Positions 6,800 through 59,009 of a stretch of 64,000 bases of DNA are shown here, piece by piece. The translations under genes and the position numbers were made by a program. The stretch is from Phycisphaerales bacterium (GTDB lineage: Bacteria > Planctomycetota > Phycisphaerae > WQYP01). Position 1 is the first letter of the stretch; each line of letters starts with the position of its first letter. A model generated the notes under the pieces. It saw only the letters and a program-made list of their open reading frames with translations, was not told the DNA's origin and ran no database searches. The stretch lies in contig DAIDJN010000056.1 of NCBI GenBank assembly GCA_027451365.1, positions 1 to 64,000 of the forward strand, in the 5' to 3' direction.

Positions 6800-7179
6800 A
6801 ACAGAACGCGATGGCGGACGGTCAATCGATGATTTAACCGACGGGCAAGAGGTTGACTTTTCCCGGCGGGACCAGTGGATCAAGAGAGTTGAGATTCCAG
6901 CGGTTGGGGCATTTTTTAACACTTTTGCCGTGAATTCCACGGCTGGCGCGCAGCTGCTTTCGAGCCACAGGCGCGACATGAAGCCGGCGCGCGCCGCTGG
7001 GCGCGGGTGTCGTTCATTTCAAATTTTTATTGCGCGGGCGGTTATCGCCCGGGGCCGATCGCTATGAATATGTACAGGCATCAGATGCTTTTCGACCGGT
7101 GGCGAAGATGGACCCCGGCGTGCGGCATGATTCTGCCGGGTTGCGACAGGTCATTGGATAAGCAGTTAAAGGATTTCAA

Positions 7180-8535
7180 ATGAAAATAAAATTTACGCGC
7201 GAATATCTCGGCCAAAAAAAGGATGCAGTGGTTGAACTTCCGGATGATCAGGCCAAACCGCTGATTGGCAGCGGCACCGCCGAGGCAATAGCCGCTGTTC
7301 CGGCGGACCTTGAAGAGGCTCTGGGCGTGATGCACAAGGCGATGAACGAGCAGTTGGAAACTGCGGCGCAGCGCATCACCGGGCAGGTCATTGAGCAGGT
7401 TTCCCGCGGTTTAAAGGGGATTCGGCCGACACTGGTGATCGGCCCGGACCGTGCGGATCTTGACCCTACGGGCGGTTTTAGGAATCTTGGAGAATTCGCC
7501 CAGGCGGTTCGTCGCCATTTCACGCACAAATCCACTGATGAACGCATTAAACGCATGATGACCAAGGCCGATGGCATGGATGAAACCACGCAGGCGGATG
7601 GCGGAGCGCTGGTGCCAACCGAATATGCGAATCAGTTGTACCGGGATGTGCTGGCCGAGTCGGTGCTGTTTGACAAGGCCCGCAAATATCCGATCAGCAT
7701 GGGCAATTCACTTTATATTCCGGTTCGCAGCATTACGGAACTTGGCATCACCGCCGCTTCAGGCGGGTCGCTGGGCGCGTGGCTGAATGCGGATGGCGTT
7801 TCCATTGGCGCCCAGAAGCCCGTCTACAACCGCGTGCAAATGACGCTTAACCGCTGGGGCGCCCTGCTGCCGGTAACCGACGAGTTGCTGGCCGACAACA
7901 ATGTGGCGCTTTCCAATTTCATTCTGGATGAAGGCGGCATCGCGCTGGCCTGGGATTTGAATCAGGCCATGCTTACCGGCACCGGCGCGGCGCAGCCTCA
8001 GGGGATATTGAATTCGCCGGCGCTGGTAACCGCGGCCGCGGACGCGGGGCAGGCAAACTTCACCATCAGCTACAGCAATCTGGTGAATATGAAAAGCCAT
8101 CTATGGACCCCCCGTCCCGGTGACCTTTCCGGCGTGGTGTGGATCGCGCATCCGGATGCCGAAGCGCAGTTTGAACAGTTGAAGGATGGTGCGGGACGGA
8201 ATCTGTATTTTGCCGCCGGCACCATTCAGCAGTCGCCACAGGGACGGCTATTCGGTCTGCCCGTGGTGTACAGCTACCACTGTTATCCGGTGGGGAATCC
8301 AGGTGATGTCATTCTGGCGGACCTGAACCAATATTTTGTTTCCACGAAGGCGGGTGGCGGGATTGAAACCGCCATGTCCATGCACCTGTATTTTGACAGT
8401 GCGGAAACCGCATACCGGATCATTTACCGCGTGGATGGCAAGGTGGCGCGGAATGCCCCGCTGACTGTTCCCAACAGTGGAAATCTGCGCAGCGGATTTG
8501 TTTCCCTGGCGGCCCGCGGCGGCACGTTAAGCTAA
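7180..8535 (+). CDS. HK97-fold phage-type major capsid protein with N-terminal extension
   Basis: DGGALVPTEYA, VTDELLAD, LTGTGAAQPQGIL, LKDGAGRNLY, RLFGLPV, GDVILADL and YRIIYRVDG motifs typical of HK97-family capsid proteins; AAAGGA RBS. Confidence 0.93.
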   Translation: MKIKFTREYLGQKKDAVVELPDDQAKPLIGSGTAEAIAAVPADLEEALGVMHKAMNEQLETAAQRITGQVIEQVSRGLKGIRPTLVIGPDRADLDPTGGFRNLGEFAQAVRRHFTHKSTDERIKRMMTKADGMDETTQADGGALVPTEYANQLYRDVLAESVLFDKARKYPISMGNSLYIPVRSITELGITAASGGSLGAWLNADGVSIGAQKPVYNRVQMTLNRWGALLPVTDELLADNNVALSNFILDEGGIALAWDLNQAMLTGTGAAQPQGILNSPALVTAAADAGQANFTISYSNLVNMKSHLWTPRPGDLSGVVWIAHPDAEAQFEQLKDGAGRNLYFAAGTIQQSPQGRLFGLPVVYSYHCYPVGNPGDVILADLNQYFVSTKAGGGIETAMSMHLYFDSAETAYRIIYRVDGKVARNAPLTVPNSGNLRSGFVSLAARGGTLS

Positions 8536-8659
8536 GGCACATCTCTCTGACACCCGAATCCGGACCGGCCCGACTTTCATACTGCGATGAATTCGCGGCC
8601 GGTTCGGAGAGGGGCGTCTGTTTTCAGTGGTTTAAGACGCAACGCACAGGAGCATCCCG

Positions 8660-8989
8660 ATGGTTTCTTTTTCCGCATTGACCAGTCCGACCGCGGTGGA
8701 TGTGCTGACCGATGCACTGACACAATGGGCTGTTATCGGAGGCTTTTGTCTGGCGCTCGCGGGCAGCGTGGTAACGGTGATTGGCTTTGTCATCACACTC
8801 AAGGTGACGCAGCATGATCATGCCCGGCGGCTTTCAAGTCTGGAAACGGCGCTGCGGCAGTTCCTGGCGCGCATGGAAACACTGGAGCGCGGAATGGCCG
8901 TTCTGCTGCAACGGTCCGGGCGCAAGGCGGGCCACCTCCGGCTTTCGCGTCGCGCAGCCGGCGGACCGGTATCGGCCGGCGTGCCCTGA
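8660..8989 (+). CDS. small membrane protein, holin/XhlA-like (TM plus coiled coil plus basic tail)
   Basis: CAGGAG RBS; hydrophobic WAVIGGFCLALAGSVVTVIGFVITL followed by heptad-like RLSSLETALRQFLARMETLERG. Confidence 0.55.
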   Translation: MVSFSALTSPTAVDVLTDALTQWAVIGGFCLALAGSVVTVIGFVITLKVTQHDHARRLSSLETALRQFLARMETLERGMAVLLQRSGRKAGHLRLSRRAAGGPVSAGVP

Positions 8990-9043
8990 CCTTCGCGATC
9001 GGCCGCGGATATCCATTGACGCAACTTAAATGGAGATATTGAC

Positions 9044-9712
9044 ATGCAAAATTCATGTAATCAGGCACAGGTGTTAAAGCGGCCGGGTGGGGAAATGAGG
9101 ATGCCATCCCGCCGGCGCGCGGCGCGGGGGATTATGGTCGGGATTCTTGCCGGCGCCTGCTCGGCCGTCCTGGGGTGCGGGTCGGCCCCGCCGACCGTTG
9201 TACATACGGCGGATATGATGCCGCAGGTGCTTACGCTGGGAAAGGATATTCAGGCCGCACGCGGTCTGAACACCCAGGCCCAAAGTCTGGTCGTGGGGCT
9301 GGGGCCGCTGGTGTCGCCAACGGCCGTTGCGCCCCTGCACGCCACCCTGCGGCGGCAGGGAATTGTGCTGGTGCGGGCGGATGCAAACGCCGCGGTTCTA
9401 GCCCGTCAGGCATCGGAAAATGCTCACGCGCTTGCGGCAATGGAAAAGGCCACACGCAACGCGCGGGCCGCGGCCGCCAAAGCACTCGTGGACAAGCGGG
9501 CGGCGGACCGCCGCAGGGACGCGGCGATTCAGCAATATCAGCGGGCATGGATCGGTGGAAGAACCAAACGGCTGATTGCATGGGTCATCGGTTTGGGCGT
9601 GCTGCTGGTGGTGGGGGATTTTTTGATTTCAGCCATTTTTGGAGTCGGGTTTAATCCCCTGGAATGGATATTCAATTTGGCGCGGGCGGCCCACGCCCCG
9701 ACTCATGCATAG
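9044..9712 (+). CDS. lipoprotein with helical periplasmic region and C-terminal TM helix (spanin-like)
   Basis: Basic N-region, hydrophobic stretch and lipobox-like VLGC; Ala-rich coiled-coil middle; C-terminal RLIAWVIGLGVLLVVGDFLISAIFG. Confidence 0.6.
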   Translation: MQNSCNQAQVLKRPGGEMRMPSRRRAARGIMVGILAGACSAVLGCGSAPPTVVHTADMMPQVLTLGKDIQAARGLNTQAQSLVVGLGPLVSPTAVAPLHATLRRQGIVLVRADANAAVLARQASENAHALAAMEKATRNARAAAAKALVDKRAADRRRDAAIQQYQRAWIGGRTKRLIAWVIGLGVLLVVGDFLISAIFGVGFNPLEWIFNLARAAHAPTHA

Positions 9713-9789
9713 TGCGGCTTGCTTTCTGGCACACGAAGTTGATGAACCCCATTGGAAAAAAATAGTTCTGTTTTTCAGGAGAATGATTT

Positions 9790-9993
9790 ATGCTTTCATT
9801 GATGTTTGGTATCGGCTTGGGATTTTGCGGCGGCGTTGCGGCGGTGCTTGCGGTTCAGGCTCTGGCGGAACACAAATCCTATCACTCGGTAGCGGCGGAA
9901 GATTTCACTTCGCTTAAATCCGACTTGCGAACTGGAATTGATAATCTGCTTGCAGAACTGAAAAAGCTGACCGGCGCCGGTCCGCATAGCTGA
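9790..9993 (+). CDS. small N-terminally anchored membrane protein
   Basis: CAGGAG RBS; hydrophobic N-terminus; amphipathic C-terminal helix. Confidence 0.6.
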   Translation: MLSLMFGIGLGFCGGVAAVLAVQALAEHKSYHSVAAEDFTSLKSDLRTGIDNLLAELKKLTGAGPHS

Positions 9994-10075
9994 CACTCCT
10001 TGCCGCTGGTTGGCGGGCGCATGGTCCGGTAGTGTCATCAATTACCCTTGTTTTCTTATGCGAAAGGACGATGTC

Positions 10076-11593
10076 ATGAGTCTTTTTGGGTCTTCAACCG
10101 GTCTTGGGATGTGTTACAAGCCGCAGGCGATGCTGCCGTTTCTTCAGGCGGCGCTTTCGCGTCGGGTGGACCTGGCGATCATGAGTGATTCAAACACGGT
10201 CAAAGGGTCTGAACAGGGGCATAATGTCGGGATGCGAAATGCCTTTGCCGCGCGCTTTGGCATGTATGCCACGGGTCTGCTGTCTATAGGTAACGGCGGC
10301 AACGATGGCCAGGGCAGTGGATATACCAGCGCGGCCAATTGGCCTTCGCCATCTACTTTTGGTGCTGCAACCGGAATTACCGCGCTGGACGCATACCTTG
10401 CCAATGACGGCGTTTCCGAGGCGGCTTTCATGGGCCAGACCTGGCAATATATGCCCAGCAGCGGGACGATTACCGGTCAGCAGGTGACGACGATTCAATT
10501 GGCGAGCCTGCAGGGATTGCAATTGCCGCTGCCGGCAAGTCTTTCAAACAACGGCAAGATTATTTACGCCAGCCCGATGGACTTAACGCAGGAGCTTTCC
10601 TGGGAATGGACGCAGGGCACGTTTACCACTGGCGGTTATTGGAATCCGACCGCGTATCAGACGGCGGCTCAATATACGAATTATGCGACGGCAAAAGTAT
10701 CTTCCAGTGGCGGATCTTACGGCATGCAGGATGGGAATTTGATTATTCCCGCCGGGGCGCGAAATTCCAACGGGACATACGGGACCATCACACTTTCGCC
10801 ATGCGATTTCGCCGGAGGCACGACGCTGGCTTACGGCGTCAAGGGGCCGGTGCTGATTTCGTATCAGCGGGTGCAGGCACCCGGCGTGCTGACGGGAATC
10901 GCGTATACCACCAACCTTTACCAGGGCGGCCAGGACGCCCGTAACGCGGCGCTGGCGTGGCAGGGAACGGGCATGACCGCGAAGGTGGAATATATGCGGC
11001 AATTGACGCGGTTGCAGAATGGGGCTGCGCCGATGGCCTGTTTTCATATCATGCACGGTGGCAACGATTTTATTGATTCCAACAATTCGGTCGGGCCAAA
11101 CCCGCAGGTGTCCAGCACGCCGGGCGGTTTTGCCGACAACCTGACGGCGATTATCACCGCGATTCGCGCCGCGTGGACCGCGGCGGGATATGCGTTGTCC
11201 AATCTGTTTTTCCTGATCGGGCCGTATCATCCGGCGATTTCACGGCTGGCCAATACGCTGACCTGGCAGGGCACAAGTTATCAGCAGCTTGTGGCCTATG
11301 AATTAGCCGCAGGCAGCGTGGCTGACGCGTTTGGCAATGTGACGGTCATGCACGGCAGCCAATTGCTGCCGGGCGGATTCGGGCAGTCTGCGATGTATAT
11401 GCAGTCCAAGGGATTTTATGACTACCAGGGCGATGCGCATCTGATTCGCCAGGGCTATGAATGGATCGGCTTCAGAGCGGTCGATACGCTGATAAGTGAG
11501 GCGTTTGGCAGCGGGGCCACTTCATCTCCGTCGGGGGTATTTTCCAGCAGCGGAACGGCAAGCCTGAGCACTGGCACATTTACGACCGGGTGA
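10076..11593 (+). CDS. SGNH/GDSL-hydrolase-family protein with large Gly/Thr/Ser-rich beta insertion
   Basis: Block I IMSDSNT, block III HGGND and block V GDAHLIRQGY; AAAGGA RBS before ATG 10076. Confidence 0.7.
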   Translation: MSLFGSSTGLGMCYKPQAMLPFLQAALSRRVDLAIMSDSNTVKGSEQGHNVGMRNAFAARFGMYATGLLSIGNGGNDGQGSGYTSAANWPSPSTFGAATGITALDAYLANDGVSEAAFMGQTWQYMPSSGTITGQQVTTIQLASLQGLQLPLPASLSNNGKIIYASPMDLTQELSWEWTQGTFTTGGYWNPTAYQTAAQYTNYATAKVSSSGGSYGMQDGNLIIPAGARNSNGTYGTITLSPCDFAGGTTLAYGVKGPVLISYQRVQAPGVLTGIAYTTNLYQGGQDARNAALAWQGTGMTAKVEYMRQLTRLQNGAAPMACFHIMHGGNDFIDSNNSVGPNPQVSSTPGGFADNLTAIITAIRAAWTAAGYALSNLFFLIGPYHPAISRLANTLTWQGTSYQQLVAYELAAGSVADAFGNVTVMHGSQLLPGGFGQSAMYMQSKGFYDYQGDAHLIRQGYEWIGFRAVDTLISEAFGSGATSSPSGVFSSSGTASLSTGTFTTG

Positions 11594-11647
11594 TCACGCG
11601 ATTGCGTTCCAGATTCAATTACAGACTTTATAGACCAAGAGGTAATC

Positions 11648-12058
11648 ATGACCGCTTCGATCATAAGTTTCGACGGCTCCGCCGATTTTCTTGCCTTTAC
11701 CACCCCAGTTCAAACCGTTCCCGCCGGCAATGCTCCGATGGAATGTTTTGACCTGCAATATCCGGCTCGGCGTGGCAAACTTCTGCTGACGATGACGGTG
11801 GGTAACGCCGGTCGGCTGGATACCTTCTATATCAGCCGCGCCAGCATTCTGGGTGGCACGACGGTGCCGTGGAAAAGCGGCACGGACTTTCTTACGCCCA
11901 CCAGTCAGCAGCCGGAAACTCTGGCGTACACATTTCCAGTACCCGCCGGGACGAGTTTTCAACTGATGGTGGATATGGAAGGTGTGGCCGAATTGCAGAT
12001 ATGGGCCGGATCTATTGCCGGCACCACATTGCAACTGCAGGTTGGCGCGCCGGATTAA
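11648..12058 (+). CDS. hypothetical beta-rich protein (possible capsid decoration/cement protein)
   Basis: AAGAGG RBS; alternating hydrophobic/Thr pattern, no TM helix; position in the capsid operon. Confidence 0.6.
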   Translation: MTASIISFDGSADFLAFTTPVQTVPAGNAPMECFDLQYPARRGKLLLTMTVGNAGRLDTFYISRASILGGTTVPWKSGTDFLTPTSQQPETLAYTFPVPAGTSFQLMVDMEGVAELQIWAGSIAGTTLQLQVGAPD

Positions 12059-12114
12059 CCGGCGGCCCGGGCCTCCGCAATTCCAGATCAGATCAGAACA
12101 TCACAGGAATGCAG

Positions 12115-13425
12115 ATGAATATTCTTATCAAATGGCCGACGCGCAGCCGGCCACAACTGTTTTTGGCGACTTTGGCCAGATGGCGGTCCATGGCATCGGG
12201 GCAACATTGCATACGGTACGTGATCAGCATTGATGCCGATGATCCGACCATGTGCACGCCCTGGGTAACCCGCGCTTTGGCGGATATGAAGGATGTGCGC
12301 GTAATAACGGGTGCGGCGCGACGAAGCAAAGTAAGCGCCTGCAACGCGGACCTTCCGGTGGATGGCGACTATAGCTTCGCCGGCGAGCCACCCGATATGC
12401 TGGTTCTGGCCAGCGACGACATGCAGCCGCGAATGCGGGAATGGGATGATATTTTCGCAAAAACAATGGCGCAACAGTTTCCCGCGATGGATGGCGCGCT
12501 GCACTTTTCCGATGGTTACCGCGGCGGTCAATCACTGATGACTCTTTCGATAATGGGTTGGAATCTGTATCGCCGTTTCGGGTATGTCTATCATCCGGCG
12601 TATCAGTCGTTTTTCTGCGACAATGAATTTACCGCCGTGGTCAAAAAAACAGGCAGATATGCCTGGGACCCGCGCGTGGTGATTGAGCATGAACATATCG
12701 GGAGGCATCCGGATGCCCTGTACCGGCGGAACCAACTGCGATGGCGGGAAGATGAGCTGATGTTCGCACTGCGGCAGTCCGCCGGATTTGATATTCAGAC
12801 TCCCCGGTTAAGCATTCTGATCGCCGCTTTGGACAAGCGGGAAAAATCGCTGCGAGAACTGCTGGATATCCTGCATCAGCAGATTTTTGCCTTGGCGAAT
12901 CCGTGGCAGGTGGAAATTCGTGTCGCGCGTGACCGCGGCGAATTACCGGTGGGCATCAAGCGGCAGCGGCTGTTGCGCGAGGCGGGCGGTGATTTCGTCT
13001 GCTTCATTGATGATGACGATCTGGTGGCGCCCACATATGTCGCCGATATTCTGTTCGCCATTGATCGCCAGCCCGGCGTGGACTGCGTGGTGTTCGGCGG
13101 ACGTCTGGAAGTGGATGGTCGATTTGCCGGTCCATTTGATTATTCGATTGCCCATCAGCGATATTATCAGGTGGGGAACCGCTATTTCCGCACGCCGAAC
13201 CATTTGTGCCCGGTGCGGCGCGATCTTGCGATTCAGGTCGGGTTTAAGGCGGTCAATTGCGGGGAAGATACCGATTACGCCCGGCGTCTTTACCCGCTTT
13301 TGAAAACGCAGGCGGAAATTGCGGCACCGGACGGGACCGGAGAAAAGAAAACTCTATATCAATATCGCTTCAGCCCCACGGGCACCGCGACACAACTGGC
13401 TGGCAAATCGGCGGCGCAAGTCTGA
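12115..13425 (+). CDS. two-domain GT-A (GT2-like) glycosyltransferase
   Basis: Domain 1 has PTRSRP...SDDM...FFCDNEF; domain 2 has LSILIA...FIDDDD...PNHL...GEDTDY. ACAGGA RBS. Confidence 0.85.
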   Translation: MNILIKWPTRSRPQLFLATLARWRSMASGQHCIRYVISIDADDPTMCTPWVTRALADMKDVRVITGAARRSKVSACNADLPVDGDYSFAGEPPDMLVLASDDMQPRMREWDDIFAKTMAQQFPAMDGALHFSDGYRGGQSLMTLSIMGWNLYRRFGYVYHPAYQSFFCDNEFTAVVKKTGRYAWDPRVVIEHEHIGRHPDALYRRNQLRWREDELMFALRQSAGFDIQTPRLSILIAALDKREKSLRELLDILHQQIFALANPWQVEIRVARDRGELPVGIKRQRLLREAGGDFVCFIDDDDLVAPTYVADILFAIDRQPGVDCVVFGGRLEVDGRFAGPFDYSIAHQRYYQVGNRYFRTPNHLCPVRRDLAIQVGFKAVNCGEDTDYARRLYPLLKTQAEIAAPDGTGEKKTLYQYRFSPTGTATQLAGKSAAQV

Positions 13426-50285: not shown

Positions 50286-51506
50286 TCAATCATTCTCCAG
50301 CGAAAAACGATTGGACGTCCATTCCGCCTTTGTGTCGGTCACAATGGGCGGTCGCATTGCCGCATCGGCGGGCGTCGGCAGCGGGGGTGTTGCGCTGGCC
50401 GGTTTGCGCCCGCGCCGCCGCTTGCGGACAGAGACTTCTGCGTCTTCCCGCGGCGGCAATGCGGATTGCGCAGCATTGGATTGAATATGTAACGATTGAT
50501 CCGCCGTGCCGTCCGGCATCAGATTCCGACTGTTGGCCGGTGTAATACGCCAGACCGCCGGATACAGGCCGGTGATCTGGCTATGACGCAATGGACGGCG
50601 AGGATAAACCGGGTTCAGCGGTACCAGCGTAAGATACGTGGCATCCGCATCAGGGGGTGCCTCGGCCGACCCGGCGGCAAATTCAATGCGCTTGAATGTG
50701 GTGGAAAAGTTTTCGGAATCATCCAGTCGTACCAGGCAGTCATCACCTTCCTGCGGGGTTTGCGTGGAGGAAAACACCACAATATCGCCCTGCTTGTAGC
50801 GGGGTTCCATGGAATCGCCTTCGATCCGCAGGGCGAAAAGGCCGGCATCCGGAGAGCCGGCTGCGGGTGATGCTTCAGATTCCGCAATTGTGTCCGCGGG
50901 TACCGGCACCGAGATGTAACTGTCCGCGATGCCGACGGGGTAATCAAGGTCGGTAAATTCCGCCGCATTGCCGGCGGCTACGCGGTTGATCAGCGGAATG
51001 CGCATCAACGGCACGACCGATGCTTCAGCTGAATATCGCGTGCCAGATTCCGGACCGGAGTCAGTCGATGATTGACCGACGGGTCGTGCAACCCTAAGAA
51101 GCTGGTCGAGGTCTACCGCGCCATCCGCGCGGCGCGGTACGTTTTCGCCGTGGGAACGAATCGCGGACCGGGGGCTTTCGGGCAGCGGCCGGGCGGAAAG
51201 CAGATTTCGCACAGTTTGCGGGGTGCGAAGCCAATCCGCCTGGGCGTTGAGCGATCCGGCCGGAAGGTTCAGCGACTTCTCCAGAAGTGCAAGTTTATCT
51301 GGTGCGGGTGGCCCACTCAGGCGGCCGGTTTCAATATTGGATAAATATGGCTTGCTGATACCGGTTGCCGCGGCCAATTGGTCCAGTGTCCAACCGACCG
51401 CGTGACGAAATTGGCGAAGATTCTGGCCGAAGGCAACCAGGCCTTCGGGCCTTGATTGTGTCAAAATATTCGTATCTTGCGGGTGAAGGTTTGGTGTGGA
51501 CGCCAT
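50286..51506 (-). CDS. XRE-HTH plus S24 peptidase (LexA/CI-like) repressor
   Basis: HTH LRQFR...TLDQLAAATGISKPYLSNIETG; IPLINRVAAG cleavage-site region; catalytic Ser (GDSMEP) and Lys (TFKRI); GGAGA RBS. Confidence 0.9.
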   Translation of the reverse strand: MASTPNLHPQDTNILTQSRPEGLVAFGQNLRQFRHAVGWTLDQLAAATGISKPYLSNIETGRLSGPPAPDKLALLEKSLNLPAGSLNAQADWLRTPQTVRNLLSARPLPESPRSAIRSHGENVPRRADGAVDLDQLLRVARPVGQSSTDSGPESGTRYSAEASVVPLMRIPLINRVAAGNAAEFTDLDYPVGIADSYISVPVPADTIAESEASPAAGSPDAGLFALRIEGDSMEPRYKQGDIVVFSSTQTPQEGDDCLVRLDDSENFSTTFKRIEFAAGSAEAPPDADATYLTLVPLNPVYPRRPLRHSQITGLYPAVWRITPANSRNLMPDGTADQSLHIQSNAAQSALPPREDAEVSVRKRRRGRKPASATPPLPTPADAAMRPPIVTDTKAEWTSNRFSLEND

Positions 51507-52137: not shown

Positions 52138-52502
52138 ACCGCCGTGACCGGCGAAGGCTTAGCAGATCAATGTCTTCCAGCAGCATCGCGAGTTCACCGG
52201 TCTTGAACTTCACACGCGGCGAAGAGGGGTTCTCCACCGGGCGGGAAGCCGTAACGCGCCTTCCTCCAGCCGCTTGTACCAGATGGCCAGACCCTCACGA
52301 CCCAAAGTACAGTATTTTGAGGCGAACCCCGTGACGATCTGCGAACAAAAACAGGTCCCCTGATAACGGGTCCTGCCCCAGAGACTCGCGTGCCCATTGG
52401 GCCAGCGTGTCAAAGCCGCAACGCATATCCGTCGGTATCAGGCACAGAAAGTCCTGTACAGGTATCTGGCCATCCATGGCCCGCAGACTCGGAAGTGTGC
52501 AT
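52138..52502 (-). mobile_element. tnpB: degenerate IS66-family tnpB (accessory gene) remnant
   Basis: PTDMRCGFDTLA...DPLSGDLFLF..R....LKIL / EGLAIWYKRLEEG / ELAMLLEDIDL are split over three frames by frameshifts; no tnpC nearby. Confidence 0.85.
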
Positions 52503-55153: not shown

Positions 55154-57424
55154 TTAAGGACCAGCGCGATTGAGCAATCTGGTGACCTGGGCATGATACA
55201 CGCGCATCGCTGGTCCGTGGGCAATCTTCAACGTGCAGTGCGACAGCACGACGTTGCGGGCGTTGACAATTTTCATGCCACTAAGGGCCGTAATCGACAC
55301 GTTCTTCAAATACACCCCGCGAATCGGCATTTCCGGCACGCCAATAATTTCGCCCGCCATTCGGCTGCCGGTCGCCCGAACGTTATCGATATCAATATTA
55401 CGCCATACTGGCGTGCGGCTGGTGATCGGTAATGCCTTGTCATCCTGGGCATTTTTCGGAACTTTCAAATAATAACTGACAATCTGTATCGGCATTTTAA
55501 CATCCGTCATCTTCAGATGCGAATACACCAGGTCGCGCACCACGCCGCCACGAAGCCGGTTGGATTTCAGCCGGATGCCGGCGTCGGTACGGTCAAACAG
55601 ACAATGCGTGACGGTTAAATTCCGCAGTCCGCCATAGGTAACAGACCCCACCGACATGCCATGTCCATGGTCGAAAGTACAATTCCGGATCAGAAAATTT
55701 TCACACGATGGACGTTGCCATGTCGACTTGCCAGCGGCCTTAATGGCAATGCAATCGTCTCCTTCATCAAACCGACAACCGGTGATCAGGTAGTTCCAGC
55801 CGGAAGGATCGATGCCGTCTGTGTTCGGAGAATGCTGCGGTGCCCGAATGGTCAGGCCGGCAATGACCACATCCCGGCATTCCTGCGGGAAAAGATGAAA
55901 GCTGGGCGAATTTTCCAGCGTTACATTGGAAACCAGCACGCGGCGGCAATGGCGCAGCACCACCAGTTGCGGGCGGCGCATGGGAACCGGTGTGGGCGCA
56001 GAGTGTTGGCGTTTGGCTGCCCAGGCAATCCGCCACCACGGCCGCCCCTGGCCATCCAGCACGCCGTGGCCCGTAATTGCAATATCATGGGCATTCGTTG
56101 CCTCTAGACAGGGCTCGACATAACCCGGACCTTTCGCATAATCGGCCGGGTCTGTGGCAAACTGCAGCCTGCATCCCTTTTTCAGATGCAGATTGATATC
56201 ACTGTAAAGCGTCAGCGGACCGGTCAGATAATTTCCCGGACCGATGACCACTTCGCCACCGCCCGCCTGATGGCAGATATCCAGCACATTCTGCAGAAGA
56301 CGGGTTTGCGGCTGACTTAAATCGGGCTTCAGATGATAGTCCGCCATTGCAAATACCTGGGCGGGAATTCGCGGACCGCTGACTGCCAGAATTTCCGGCA
56401 GCAATGTCCTCTGGACGCGCTTTTCCGGATTCCACCCGTCATTTCCCGCCAAAACATGCCGCAGGGTCAGACGCGCTGCCTGCGCGGAAGTCAGAATGCG
56501 CGTCCAGGCCGCAATGTGTTTTGGGTGCCAGCCGGGTCCGCGGTTGGCGTATTGCGCGTAGCGAACGGTCTTTTTATCCATCGGATTGTGATGCCAGGTG
56601 ATCCACGCCGATGGCGCAATGCCCGCGGGCAGCCAAGTGTGCATGAACACCACATGGGCATATTGCCGCCATGGTCGGCCCAGCACCACGCTGCCCGGTC
56701 CGGTCAGGGCATCAAGTTTGCAATGGTTAAACACAAATCCGTCGGTCGCGCCCCGCGGTGTGCGCGCCGCGGTAACAAAACCATGGCCGAGGCAGTGAAT
56801 CAGGCAATGATTAAAGTAATCCGTCCCGGCGCCAAAGATAAAATCGGTCGCGCCGGAAATGGTGCAGTTCTCAAAATATTGCCGGTTTTTAGACACCAGG
56901 ACCGTGTCCTGCCAGCCGATGAAGCGGCAATGAAAAAATATGCAACGGTCGGCATCCACACGCAGCGCCAATGCCTGGCCGGTATTTCCCGCGGAATTGA
57001 CCATGGTGATGTTGGCGGCCGAAAAGCGATTGGCGCGAACCCAGACTGTGGGTGTGGCAAACGTGCCGATCGGTTTGCCGTTGGCGCCTTTCGCATTCGC
57101 ATTCAATGAAAACGTGATGATCGTATGGCGGGTTTGCCCGTCTTCCCCCAGAAAAGTCAGCGGTGGCAAATGCGGCCCCACCACCACACGCTGCGTGTAA
57201 ACGCCCGGCTTGATGAAAACAATCACCGGCACTTTTGTGCCGGGTTTAATGGAATCCACCGCGCGCTGCACCGACCGGAACTGGCCGGAGCCATTTTTCG
57301 CAACGGTTATCCAGTTTGCGGCGCCTGCCCGGGCGATTCCGGTACACGCTATCCAAAAGAATAAACCCGCGGTGCTCAGCATGACCGCGGCCCGAGCGAA
57401 TCGATTGTGGATATGGGCAACCAT
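55154..57424 (-). CDS. secreted bifunctional pectin methylesterase (CE8) plus polygalacturonase (GH28) fusion
   Basis: Signal peptide; CE8 motifs QALAL, WQDT, DFIFG and LGRPW; GH28 motifs NTDG, GDDC, GHG and RLK. Confidence 0.92.
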   Translation of the reverse strand: MVAHIHNRFARAAVMLSTAGLFFWIACTGIARAGAANWITVAKNGSGQFRSVQRAVDSIKPGTKVPVIVFIKPGVYTQRVVVGPHLPPLTFLGEDGQTRHTIITFSLNANAKGANGKPIGTFATPTVWVRANRFSAANITMVNSAGNTGQALALRVDADRCIFFHCRFIGWQDTVLVSKNRQYFENCTISGATDFIFGAGTDYFNHCLIHCLGHGFVTAARTPRGATDGFVFNHCKLDALTGPGSVVLGRPWRQYAHVVFMHTWLPAGIAPSAWITWHHNPMDKKTVRYAQYANRGPGWHPKHIAAWTRILTSAQAARLTLRHVLAGNDGWNPEKRVQRTLLPEILAVSGPRIPAQVFAMADYHLKPDLSQPQTRLLQNVLDICHQAGGGEVVIGPGNYLTGPLTLYSDINLHLKKGCRLQFATDPADYAKGPGYVEPCLEATNAHDIAITGHGVLDGQGRPWWRIAWAAKRQHSAPTPVPMRRPQLVVLRHCRRVLVSNVTLENSPSFHLFPQECRDVVIAGLTIRAPQHSPNTDGIDPSGWNYLITGCRFDEGDDCIAIKAAGKSTWQRPSCENFLIRNCTFDHGHGMSVGSVTYGGLRNLTVTHCLFDRTDAGIRLKSNRLRGGVVRDLVYSHLKMTDVKMPIQIVSYYLKVPKNAQDDKALPITSRTPVWRNIDIDNVRATGSRMAGEIIGVPEMPIRGVYLKNVSITALSGMKIVNARNVVLSHCTLKIAHGPAMRVYHAQVTRLLNRAGP

Positions 57425-57623: not shown

Positions 57624-59009
57624 TCAGGGCGTCGGCAGACCGGTGTGAAGATTAATTCCGCGGATCCCCGCGGAGAAAGCCATTATCGCCGGACCCCGCG
57701 CCGCGGAAATAGTGGACCGGACAAACCGCACCGCGCGGGCGTTGATAATGGTAAACCCGCGATCCGCTTTAATGTGCACATGATCGAATACAATATCGGA
57801 TGCGGGAAGTCGGGCAAGGGCGGAAATTCTGCCCGCATGCACCGCCTTTACCGCGGTTATATTGCGGAACAACACATGTTGCCAGACAGGCAAATGCCGC
57901 CGGGTCCGCAACGCCGGAATCTGCGAAGGAACCTTCGGCTTTGCGGGATAAAAGCTGTTAATGAAAAATGGCAGCCGGACATCAGTCATTTTCAAATTCT
58001 CATACACCAGGTCTTCCGTCAGGCCGCCGTAGCCCGGACCGGCCTTCAGGCGAATGCCGCGGTGGGTATGGTCAAAGGTGCAGTCCCGCACCACCACATA
58101 CCGCAGGCATCCGTTGGTTTGTCCGCCGACCGACATGCCATGGCCATGCCGGAACACGCAATGTGTGATCAGGAAATGTTCACACGATGGATGAGCGGGT
58201 GTGCCGTTCCGCGCACCGGCCTTAATGGCGATGCAGTCGTCCCCTTCATCAAATGTGCAACCGGTAATGTAATAGTTGTGCCCGGAAGGATCCAGGGCAT
58301 CGGTATTTTCCGCGGTGGGCGGGGCGGTAATGATGACGTTCCGTATGACCACATCATTGCATCCACCCGGCACCAGATGAAACATGGGAGAATTCTCCAG
58401 GTGCACATCGGCTACCAGAAGGCGTGTGCAATCGGTGATGCGCACCAGCATGGGCCGGTGTGGAAGTCTGGGCGGATGTTCATGGCCTTTCCGCTTGCGA
58501 TACAGCGGCCACCAGGCCTGGCCCTGACCGTCAATGGTGCCATGGCCGGTAATTGCCAGATCGTGGCAATGATATGCTGAAATGCAGTCCTGGTATCCTG
58601 GATGGGCACGGCCTTGGATTTTCCGGTGGGGCATATAATCCTGAAAATGTGTCGTCATCAGCAGCATGGCACCTCTGGCCAGATGCAGATTCATGGCACT
58701 GGCCAGCACAATTGGCCCGCTTAGGTAACGCCCGGCGGGAATCAGCACTTCGCCACCGCCGGCTTTTTCACAGGCGTTTATGGTGGTCTGAATGGCATGG
58801 GTGCAAAGCGTGTGGCCGCCGGAACGCGCGCCGAAGCTGGTAACGCTGAACACCCGGTGGCTGATGCGCGGCAGGTCCCGCCGCGCCATACGATGGATGG
58901 ACTGTTCCATCGGCTTAACCCAGCTGGGAACGGCCCCCAATGCTGGAACAGACGCAAGACCGGCAAGCAGAAGAACGGATAGCCGCATCCGGGTCATATA
59001 GCCTTCCAT
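57624..59009 (-). CDS. secreted GH28 polygalacturonase
   Basis: Signal peptide; FSVTSFGA, NTDA, GDDC, GHG and RLK. Confidence 0.92.
   Translation of the reverse strand: MEGYMTRMRLSVLLLAGLASVPALGAVPSWVKPMEQSIHRMARRDLPRISHRVFSVTSFGARSGGHTLCTHAIQTTINACEKAGGGEVLIPAGRYLSGPIVLASAMNLHLARGAMLLMTTHFQDYMPHRKIQGRAHPGYQDCISAYHCHDLAITGHGTIDGQGQAWWPLYRKRKGHEHPPRLPHRPMLVRITDCTRLLVADVHLENSPMFHLVPGGCNDVVIRNVIITAPPTAENTDALDPSGHNYYITGCTFDEGDDCIAIKAGARNGTPAHPSCEHFLITHCVFRHGHGMSVGGQTNGCLRYVVVRDCTFDHTHRGIRLKAGPGYGGLTEDLVYENLKMTDVRLPFFINSFYPAKPKVPSQIPALRTRRHLPVWQHVLFRNITAVKAVHAGRISALARLPASDIVFDHVHIKADRGFTIINARAVRFVRSTISAARGPAIMAFSAGIRGINLHTGLPTP

Follow-up and report, generated by a model that had tools for sequence, protein, structure and literature searches.

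A seven-gene capsid operon of a Phycisphaerales bacterium is probably one locus of a dispersed gene-transfer-agent-like particle

The capsid operon in the window, which is the whole 64-kb stretch of DNA analysed, is probably the head and lysis part of a siphovirus-like prophage. Judged from sequence, this prophage would have been domesticated once, in the ancestor of nine genera of uncultured planctomycetes, and scattered over at least six loci, which would together encode a dispersed particle similar to a gene transfer agent (GTA). Genes for the phage head, packaging, neck and tail are present in the same genomes, and no replication or integration gene adjoins them. The gene set is inherited vertically and is under purifying selection. 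An earlier note on this DNA offered two options, a capsid-only nanocompartment or one locus of a dispersed GTA-like system. The second option is well supported, because portal, terminase, neck, tail and sigma-like genes are found elsewhere and are co-inherited. The first option is not supported, because selection maintains DNA-packaging genes in the clade of these nine genera.

Results

Genes of the capsid operon

The operon is real and intact: it consists of seven ORFs in one orientation, each without an internal stop codon, and lies between a membrane-protein gene on one side and a convergent FAD oxidase gene on the other. The coordinates, the stop-free frames and the flanking genes thus agree with the earlier description of seven co-oriented, uninterrupted ORFs among host genes. 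The GC3 values of six of the seven ORFs (0.61-0.69) match those of two host genes (0.64-0.65), as does GC, with only the 67-aa ORF (GC3 0.53) as an exception. No RNA holder is listed for the operon stretch.

The first gene (7180..8535, + strand) encodes an HK97-fold major capsid protein of 451 aa (PF05065, E 1.5e-37; phrog_10, E 2e-40). This protein has an N-terminal extension, and its residues 1-43 are weakly similar to small phage proteins (phrog_2616/829). Its median dN/dS (0.067) is the lowest among the head genes, and no encapsulin family is found among its Pfam matches. The last gene (12115..13425, + strand) encodes a two-domain GT2 glycosyltransferase (PF00535; phrog_14775/8858/14945). 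It follows the capsid gene in 19 of 20 loci with a median dN/dS of 0.156, and is a core gene of the operon. The capsid and glycosyltransferase assignments made earlier are thus confirmed by Pfam and PHROG matches. The glycosyltransferase may glycosylate the shell, and the candidate acceptors are protein, DNA and the cell surface. Mycobacteriophages encode glycosyltransferases and carry glycans on capsid and tail-tube subunits, according to Freeman et al. (2023) as cited in PMC12619734, whereas a single two-domain GT2 is present here in a host-kept operon.

Three small genes on the + strand follow the capsid gene. The 109-aa membrane protein (8660..8989) has one transmembrane helix followed by an amphipathic helix according to hydropathy; it matches no family and may be holin-like by its architecture only. 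Its orthologues are found at 9 of 20 related loci, and its dN/dS is 0.20 against the relative G001. The lipoprotein (9044..9712; 10 of 20 loci; dN/dS 0.30) has a lipobox with Cys45, a helical body and a C-terminal transmembrane helix, an architecture that we take to be unimolecular-spanin-like from comparison with u-spanins. The lipobox and C-terminal helix are recognized by eye in orthologues and analogues and are supported by hydropathy, and the true start may be a later ATG. The 67-aa protein (9790..9993; 9 of 20 loci; dN/dS 0.15) has an N-terminal transmembrane helix. The membrane genes of the operon may cause lysis; no endolysin is identified.

The gene at 10076..11593 (+ strand; dN/dS 0.18) encodes an SGNH esterase into which a beta-sandwich domain is inserted. 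The protein itself has no Pfam match. The earlier assignment as an SGNH hydrolase nevertheless stands, because Ser39 is nearly invariant and Asn330 and His455 are invariant among 23 aligned sequences, and because the structure model (pLDDT 75) resembles SGNH esterases, including the peptidoglycan O-acetylesterase Ape1 (E 3e-11), and phage proteins (E 3e-23). Single-sequence folding gives a pLDDT of only 31. The gene is detected by tblastn at only 1 of 20 related loci, and its slot is elsewhere empty or occupied by other spike-like genes. By these comparisons, the SGNH gene occupies a variable accessory slot and is not a core gene; its product is akin to the esterases of phage minor tails and fibres. 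The 136-aa beta-rich protein (11648..12058, + strand; dN/dS 0.14) matches PF23926 weakly (E 0.011). Its gene is found at 3 of 20 loci, each time directly 3' of a large slot gene, so that it is a possible adaptor for the accessory-slot protein.

Structural genes at other loci of the genome

The genome of this window (G000) is a MAG, in which six structural loci are located on six contigs. The terminase gene (C63:4002-5294) is accompanied by ParB-N, ATPase-GNAT and small-terminase-like genes. The portal gene is on contig C22, the adaptor, closure, terminator and tail-tube genes are on C70, and tail-tip genes are on C54 and C81. The adaptor, closure and terminator are assigned to phage families, and the tail tube is an Atlas lead. 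The portal belongs to PF04860. The terminase is of the PF04466 type; it is missed by PF03354 and PF03237 searches and is found with a related protein as a query. Walker A and B motifs are present in all 21 terminases, and the His and Ser residues of the protease are conserved. The small-terminase-like protein seems, by eye, to keep its helix-turn-helix, and could therefore permit sequence-specific packaging; its counterpart in G015 has weak PHROG matches.

These results alter the earlier picture of a stand-alone capsid operon, because five other contigs carry terminase, portal, neck and tail-tube, tail-tip and sigma-like genes. In a PHROG scan, none of 38 other ORFs of the 64-kb window belongs to a terminase, portal, protease or integrase family. 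The earlier statement that packaging and integration genes are missing is thus correct for the 64 kb but not for the genome, where the proposed search reveals portal, terminase and tail genes on other contigs. The protease, another target of that search, is not found in G000, either by PF04586 or with proteins of relatives as queries. No integrase or replication gene is present in the listed flanks of the G000 structural loci, which adjoin host genes. As noted earlier, no obvious att repeat is seen: none of the largest 20 of 49 short repeat families in the window flanks the operon.

Distribution, inheritance and selection

The capsid gene is present in 26 of 28 clade genomes tested, the portal and terminase genes each in 21 of 24, the adaptor gene in 30 of 32 and the tail-tip gene E1 in 29 of 32. 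None of the 13 other genomes of the family has close orthologues. The set is mostly single-copy per genome. Its carriers form one RpoB clade (support 0.979) of nine genera, with RpoB divergence up to 20%, within one Phycisphaerae family. All nine gene trees recover each genus with at least two genomes as monophyletic, and the number of splits common with the RpoB tree ranges from 10 of 16 (capsid) to 18 of 22 (E1), as compared with a random maximum of 2-3. Support for the deeper splits in the gene trees is poor, and G015, which has a compact cluster, is an outlier. The median dN/dS values of ten genes are 0.06-0.19, with dS similar to the RpoB dS of the same pairs, and E1 (0.060) is as constrained as the capsid. 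The tests of dN/dS and of the capsid tree against the host tree suggested earlier thus yield purifying selection and gene trees that track the genera. Absence from relatives, neutral decay or mis-assembly, which would have spoken for a plain prophage remnant or an artefact, is not what is found.

Signs of damage and tail reduction

An IS end at the edge of a contig interrupts the G000 portal gene, whose C-terminal part is not found. Contigs from related samples run on through the IS site with portal sequence, and near-identical strains appear uninterrupted. Stops or frameshifts are present in some relatives (the glycosyltransferase of G030 and the portal of G034), and gene order and flanks vary among related loci. 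These features, together with missing tail genes and the existence of compact phage-like relatives such as IMG/VR L333, would be expected of a grounded prophage that decays slowly, while some selection persists on individual genes that do not function together. However, this explanation is improbable and is largely refuted by selection, since the set is kept across nine genera with the low dN/dS values given above, one promoter motif is kept or gained at each separated locus, and the portal sequence continues through the IS site in the related samples.

The tail looks reduced. A stricter search, which may miss weak matches, finds no long tape measure; in it, an 893-aa tape-measure-like query matches only itself among 45 genomes. 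A gene of 123-188 aa after the tail tube was considered as a trimmed tape measure and is rejected, with no match by HMM or hhalign; it is connected to tape measures only by a weak pairwise chain (E 0.003, 2.5e-5 and 4.6e-5) and by gene position. The short gene after the tail-tube gene is missing in genus g6, and in genus g7 the tail-tube gene itself is missing from that locus.

Promoter motif, leader element and sigma-like genes

A bipartite promoter-like motif, TTATC-N15-CTATG, is located upstream of the capsid gene (7042..7066, + strand). In the form TTATC-N14/15-CTATA, it is common to the five other structural loci, so that all six module starts are covered. The genome contains 17 sites, 6 of which are at the six module starts, as compared with 9.4 sites expected from other spacers; the motif is derived from the same upstream regions in which it is then counted. 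The same pattern is absent from four compact phage-like clusters. A weight matrix with a fixed spacer is rejected, as it gives 20 matches against 20 expected at a low threshold and misses the 14-spacer sites. The site at C75:28039 is not counted as a member, because none of 5 relatives has DNA that matches it. A perfect site at C82:50950 is located upstream of a small HTH gene, in a different region that is element-like. No sigma-70 consensus promoter is found on the coding strand.

The capsid 5' leader contains a conserved element (7094..7119, + strand), which is a candidate small RNA hairpin. It has six pairs, two with two-sided changes, but its score is reached by 11 of 500 shuffles and is thus weak; no Rfam match is obtained. 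A sigma-like gene is present in 22 of 32 clade genomes, and its homologues are found within compact phage-like clusters. From co-occurrence only, we infer that this gene and the motif are linked.

Discussion

Proposed function and rival roles

In the dispersed GTA-like particle that we favour, a clade-specific sigma-70 pair would turn on all loci through the common motif. The head would be built from capsid, portal and protease, and filled by the terminase with host DNA, as the element lacks a contiguous genome of its own that could be packaged. A short tail would join the head, the glycosyltransferase would glycosylate virion proteins, and an accessory esterase or lyase would attack cell-surface polysaccharide. 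The holin-like and spanin-like proteins would let the particles out, and these would bring DNA to kin in the manner of a GTA.

A domesticated DNA-packaging particle may instead have another role, such as the packaging of a defined region or of resident mobile elements, decoy or defence, or programmed lysis with DNA release. The evidence for domestication fits this explanation equally well, and the helix-turn-helix seemingly kept by the small-terminase-like protein, the reduced tail, which is partly missing in two genera, and the motif site before the small HTH gene speak for it. We nevertheless consider it rather unlikely, since the constraint on E1 and the surface-polysaccharide enzymes in the slot are as expected for delivery to cells, and no co-inherited cargo element is seen.

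Comparison with known systems

According to the classification paper (PMC9662315), GTAs form caudovirion-like particles from proteins derived from tailed phages, are fully endogenized, often at several loci, are inherited vertically and co-diversify with their hosts, cannot package their own complete gene set, and package mostly random host DNA, which is delivered to other cells. In the HK97 set described here, capsid, portal, protease, terminase, adaptor, closure and terminator derive from tailed phages. The set is endogenized at six loci on six contigs of a MAG. Its vertical inheritance is indicated by one RpoB clade and by genera monophyletic in nine gene trees, with poor support at deep nodes and G015 as an outlier. 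Judged from its dispersal, the set would very likely be unable to package its own complete gene set.

The HK97 set has in common with RcGTA (Rhodogtaviriformidae, Alphaproteobacteria) genes for an HK97 head, portal, protease, terminase and a siphovirus-type neck and tail, as well as the distribution over several loci and vertical inheritance; its predicted short tail and accessory surface-binding proteins are further points of agreement. The RcGTA tail contains five tail-tube discs, and its tape measure is ~216 residues long (PMC9662315, PMC7296036). The HK97 set differs in its phylum, in the split of the structural core itself over six loci and in its PF04466-type terminase. Unlike RcGTA, it includes a core GT2 gene, a spanin-like lipoprotein, ParB and ATPase-GNAT genes, and a phage-derived sigma-like gene. 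With a Phycisphaerae host and Phycisphaerae phage-like clusters as its nearest relatives, it probably does not descend from the RcGTA head-tail cluster. Sequence comparison reveals no close relationship: the best cultured-phage capsid is 38% identical, and phmmer against the PDB gives only two weak capsid matches.

The compact temperate-phage-like clusters (G032:C147, G033:C66 and IMG/VR L333) contain the same families, in the order terminase-portal-protease-capsid-membrane genes-glycosyltransferase-adaptor-tail, with capsids 49-63% identical (63% for L333). They differ in being contiguous and sporadic, in having portals of 743-814 aa and tape-measure-like genes of 759-893 aa, and in lacking the promoter motif, and they branch outside the host-kept copies. 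Active temperate prophages form contiguous genomes that include an integrase, att sites and replication genes, and they are sporadic among relatives of the host. The HK97 set is not an active temperate prophage, since its loci are dispersed, no att repeat or integrase is seen and nearly all clade genomes carry it.

An encapsulin is an HK97 shell without portal, terminase or tail, and with a cargo enzyme. A capsid-only glycosylated nanocompartment of this type would account for the association of capsid and glycosyltransferase genes while other modules move, and for the lowest dN/dS of the capsid among head genes, but it is very improbable, since genes for portal, protease, neck and tail and for a terminase with intact motifs are inherited along with the capsid and are under predicted control of the same promoter motif, and the capsid matches a phage family and no encapsulin family, with no evident cargo gene.

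GTAs of alphaproteobacteria, a deltaproteobacterium, a methanogen and a spirochete are treated in the classification paper (PMC9662315). No description of a GTA-like element in Phycisphaerae is found in the literature, in a search thin on subscription papers. If true, the dispersed GTA-like particle would represent a further, independent GTA domestication, in Planctomycetota, young enough that its fully scattered copies can be compared with a semi-compact one and with compact relatives that are still phage-like. The promoter motif and the sigma pair would provide a direct handle for induction.

Relationship to the SU10-type element

The SU10-type capsid and portal are found in none of the 32 clade genomes, as compared with 11 of 11 sister-clade genomes, and SU10 and the HK97 set are never together in one of the 45 family genomes. 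This either/or pattern represents a single event; outside the family, the SU10 capsid is found in 135 of 219 genomes of the class, and SU10 is missing elsewhere too, including families f4, f14, f18 and f21. Like the HK97 set, the SU10 element is host-kept, with small membrane and lipoprotein genes after the capsid gene and separate ParB, ATPase and terminase genes. Its capsid and portal belong to PF17236 and PF05133, in contrast to PF05065 and PF04860. None of 24 SU10-operon proteins matches G000, and no common motif is found at seven SU10 loci.

It is conceivable, at somewhat less than even probability, that an ancestral Phycisphaerae SU10 particle was lost on the nine-genus stem, and that a newly tamed HK97 siphovirus, which brought its own sigma factors, promoter motif and glycosyltransferase and had a shortened tail, took over its function. 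If so, the viral chassis would be exchangeable and the host function conserved, and intermediate stages of domestication would be preserved in G015 and the compact phage-like relatives. The clean either/or pattern makes a long-standing question testable, namely whether hosts retain such particles because they serve a function or whether the particles persist as selfish relics; the function would be that of the host if the same slot is filled by two tamed viruses that are unrelated.

Other observations in the window

The 64-kb window contains no tRNA gene. One of the 38 other scanned ORFs is a transposase fragment, and the ORFs at 55154-57424 and 57624-59009 have one domain in common with a tail-spike family (PHROGs).

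Gene content of the capsid operon

The seven ORFs proposed in the earlier note are present at 7180-13425 on the forward strand, in the same orientation and without internal stops. The product of ORF1 is a major capsid protein of HK97 type (PF05065, E 1.5e-37; phrog_10, E 2e-40), and ORF7 encodes a GT2 glycosyltransferase (GT) with two domains. ORFs 2-4 match no family; ORF2 and ORF4 have one TM helix apiece, and ORF3 combines a lipobox with a helical body and a TM helix at the C-terminus, an arrangement like that of a unimolecular spanin. ORF5 has no Pfam match. In an alignment of 23 sequences its SGNH residues are kept, with Asn330 and His455 invariant and Ser39 present in at least 90%, and its alignment-based structure model (pLDDT 75) matches the peptidoglycan O-acetylesterase Ape1 (E 3e-11). 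These results suggest that ORF5 is an SGNH hydrolase, as had been proposed. Phage proteins match this model better than Ape1 does; the best match (E 3e-23) is uncharacterised, and some are named minor tail or tail fibre proteins.

A scan of 38 other ORFs in the window gives no terminase, portal, protease or integrase, and no tRNA or att-like repeat is seen, so that the reported lack of packaging genes, integration genes and att repeats holds within the 64-kb window. Two adjacent host-context proteins (55154-57424 and 57624-59009, reverse strand) each have about 100 residues in common with tail-spike family phrog_2234 (E 1e-12 and 2e-13), probably a common carbohydrate-active domain. A transposase fragment lies at 52295-52477 (reverse strand).

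Partner genes on other contigs

The capsid gene is single-copy in the source genome (G000; 4.06 Mb, 88 contigs, 93% complete), and its partners are located on other contigs amid host genes. The portal gene is on C22. C63:4002-7976 encodes a ParB-N protein, an ATPase-GNAT fusion, a small-terminase-like protein and the large terminase (PF04466, phrog_2). C70:73303-75903 carries genes for a head-tail adaptor, head closure and tail terminator and for two 128-aa proteins. One of the two is tail-tube-like, a lead from an Atlas match (0.96) to a cluster with 20% Phage_tail_2; the other is of uncertain role. Three genes at C54:13193-14818 and C81:10788-11315 are putative tail-tip genes, because they occupy the position that follows the tape-measure slot in compact phage-like clusters of relatives. 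C22:3729-5290 contains a sigma-70 gene, with regions 2 and 4, and a second, sigma-region-2-like gene; the two are side by side in 18 of 22 loci; the latter has homologues within two compact clusters. The operon, which the earlier note called stand-alone, is therefore not so, because portal, terminase, neck and tail genes lie elsewhere in the genome. The genome-wide search suggested at that time recovers all classes named except the protease, which, like the C-terminal part of the portal, is not found in the assembly.

The portal gene stops at the end of an insertion sequence, presumably of the ISKra4 family, at the contig edge. Ends of the same IS family are at C4, C5, C22 and C41 (first 140 bases) and C66, and the assembly is broken there, portal included. 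A mine-drainage contig (12 differences in 2060 bases) appears to continue for ~970 bases beyond the portal break and to lack the IS, and in two other mine-drainage runs loose ends read as portal continuation. The insertion therefore looks strain-specific, as judged from four runs of one study, which may include the source sample.

The third tail-tip gene is 2 kb from genes at C81:4001-8849 that by eye look like a type I CRISPR-Cas operon.

Distribution, inheritance and selection

Close capsid relatives with named records are Phycisphaerae or Planctomycetota MAGs in 28 of 29 loci. The family comprises 45 genomes in 17 genera, and the set occurs in nine genera (32 genomes including G000). The capsid is present in 26 of the 28 clade genomes tested (54-89% identical; four of the 32 left out of this count), the two negative genomes being only 67-69% complete. 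Portal and terminase are each found in 21/24, the adaptor in 30/32, tail-tip gene E1 in 29/32 and the sigma-like gene in 22/32. Close orthologues are found in none of the 13 other family genomes, where a few weak matches resemble unrelated prophages.

Of the 20 loci compared, 18 orthologous and 2 paralogous, 19 keep capsid and GT together, and one contig is cut short. ORFs 2-4, the membrane genes, have tblastn matches in 9-10 of these loci, and in others similarly built genes take their place. The SGNH gene is matched in 1/20; in genus g13 its slot is occupied by a 678-aa protein and one that is pectate-lyase-like. Flanks and module grouping differ between genera. G015 retains a nearly compact cluster (C110), within which lie genes for a sulfotransferase (opposite strand) and a secreted protein (L108:1592-2650 and 7797-8786), as if it were being broken up by host genes. 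The paralogues on G032:C147, G033:C66 and one IMG/VR contig are compact and phage-like, and they fall outside the branch of host-kept copies. The closest cultured-phage capsid is 38% identical.

G032:C129:3996-19980 is a phage cluster of a third kind. It combines a PF03864-like capsid with a tape-measure-like gene of 899 aa, and its tail-tip genes are 44-49% alike to E1 and E2, which may reflect tail-tip exchange among phage lineages.

The RpoB tree covers 42 genomes, 4 of them outgroups and the rest 38 of the 45 in the family (G012, G032 and G068 left out for no match, G036, G064, G016 and G031 as partial). It groups the carriers in a single clade (support 0.979); genus g12 has no placement. 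All nine gene trees recover each genus with at least two genomes as monophyletic. Splits common with RpoB are 10/16 for the capsid, 8/13 for portal, 9/14 for terminase, 13/22 for adaptor, 18/22 for E1, 11/15 for GT and 15/17 for the sigma-like gene (random maximum 2-3). The proposed comparison of capsid and host trees gives agreement at the level of genera, with weak deep nodes and distance correlations of just 0.34-0.75. G015 is an outlier in the terminase, adaptor and E1 trees.

Median Nei-Gojobori dN/dS for within-genus pairs, which are non-independent, is 0.029 for RpoB (15 pairs), 0.067 for capsid (13), 0.072 for portal (10), 0.108 for protease (7), 0.123 for terminase (11), 0.189 for adaptor (17), 0.073 for tail tube (15), 0.060 for E1 (19), 0.156 for GT (11) and 0.179 for the sigma-like gene (11 of 14 pairs usable). 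The dS values are similar to those of RpoB in the same pairs (for G000-G001: RpoB 1.05, capsid 1.05, portal 1.11, terminase 1.16). The five small or accessory ORFs of the operon, compared with G001, give 0.14-0.30, similar to a neighbouring host gene (0.23). Walker A and B are present in 21/21 terminases and nuclease motifs in 15/21, several sequences being cut by contig ends; the protease His and Ser are conserved. A plain prophage remnant, absent from relatives and decaying neutrally, is contradicted by the capsid's presence across the clade and its low dN/dS.

A common upstream motif

TTATC-N14/15-CTAT(A/G) is found upstream of all six structural loci of G000 (C56, C22, C63, C70, C54 and C81). 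The site in the window (7042-7066) precedes the capsid start by 114 bases, and those of adaptor, E1 and ParB precede the start by 8-9 bases, which suggests that these three messages are leaderless. Genome-wide, G000 has 17 sites where other spacers lead one to expect 9.4, and structural-locus starts account for 6 of the 17. A looser motif precedes 10/20 capsid, 21/29 adaptor, 20/29 E1, 7/17 portal and 3/7 ParB genes in relatives (fewer than 0.3 per set expected after shuffling), counts that are partly circular because the motif was derived from the same upstream regions. It precedes 1/22 sigma-like and 3/21 terminase genes, and it is not found in four compact phage-like clusters or at the G015 module starts. 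The sigma pair would recognise this motif.

Two further near-perfect copies are located at C82:50950, before an 80-aa HTH gene adjoining a primase/helicase-like gene, and at C75:28039, ahead of a doubtful ORF whose DNA is unmatched in 5 relatives.

Mutual exclusion with an SU10-type element

The SU10-type capsid (PF17236) occurs in 11 of the 45 family genomes (7 genera), each of which also has the SU10 portal. The HK97 set is found in none of them, and neither SU10 gene is found in the 32 clade genomes; both systems are lacking in the two genomes of genus g8. The 24 SU10-operon proteins compared give no match in G000. The SU10 genomes are the sister clade of the HK97 carriers (9/11 in the RpoB tree, support 1.0), and SU10 occurs in 135 of 219 genomes from elsewhere in the class. 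The SU10 system is therefore probably ancestral. It is not found in the other 84, including whole sampled families (0/10, 0/15, 0/11, 0/7), for which no replacement is known. The pattern amounts to a single loss and a single gain on one stem, in either order.

In both systems the capsid operon ends in small membrane and lipoprotein genes. Both also have ParB/ATPase genes, which are just 30-35% alike; at four SU10 loci (L341-L344 in G014, G011, G009 and G025), ParB and an ABC-like ATPase occur with a GNAT-like gene (by eye). These genes would represent one accessory module retained in parallel by two tamed viruses. A 406-aa repressor-like protein in the window (50286-51506, reverse strand; phrog_4, E 3e-27) has a 45% identical relative adjoining the SU10-system ParB/ATPase genes in G014, and could be a leftover or a shared regulator.

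Proposed mechanism

Domestication of the phage-derived set is very likely, and GTA-like transfer by it is somewhat favoured. Of the dispersed GTA-like system suggested in the earlier note, dispersal in Phycisphaerae is borne out by six co-inherited loci, and transfer is kept as a moderately probable reading. Gene identities, dispersal, co-inheritance, selection and the common motif are the observed part of the mechanism. The sigma factors would drive joint expression of the loci, the head would assemble and be matured by the protease, and the terminase would pack host DNA, which we infer because no contiguous element exists. A short tail would then be added. At the tape-measure position most loci encode 123-188 aa and G012 encodes 277 aa, as compared with 661-899 aa in four compact clusters; homology of the 123-188-aa gene with long tape measures gained no support from comparison. 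The virion would be glycosylated, the variable enzyme would act on surface polysaccharide, and the particles would be released by holin and spanin. No endolysin is identified among the genes of the set.

The set shows the three GTA features of PMC9662315 that genomes can reveal: proteins derived from tailed phages, endogenization over several loci, and vertical inheritance with the host. If it acts as a GTA, it would also form particles, package random host DNA and deliver it to other cells. It would then operate in the manner of RcGTA (PMC7296036), to whose family it does not belong. Virion glycosylation is known in mycobacteriophages (as cited in PMC12619734). The GTA-like contigs in the part of 10.1101/2022.02.18.481119 consulted belong to Alphaproteobacteria, the consulted sections of a phylum review (PMC12673574) mention no such element, and no paper on a GTA-like element in Phycisphaerae is among the matches listed by our literature search.

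G000 also contains a small integrated element at C58:85595-94151 with primase-like, excisionase-like and integrase-like genes (by eye). It encodes a 93-aa protein that is 49% identical to the small-terminase-like protein of G015, and it is possibly a satellite able to use the particles.
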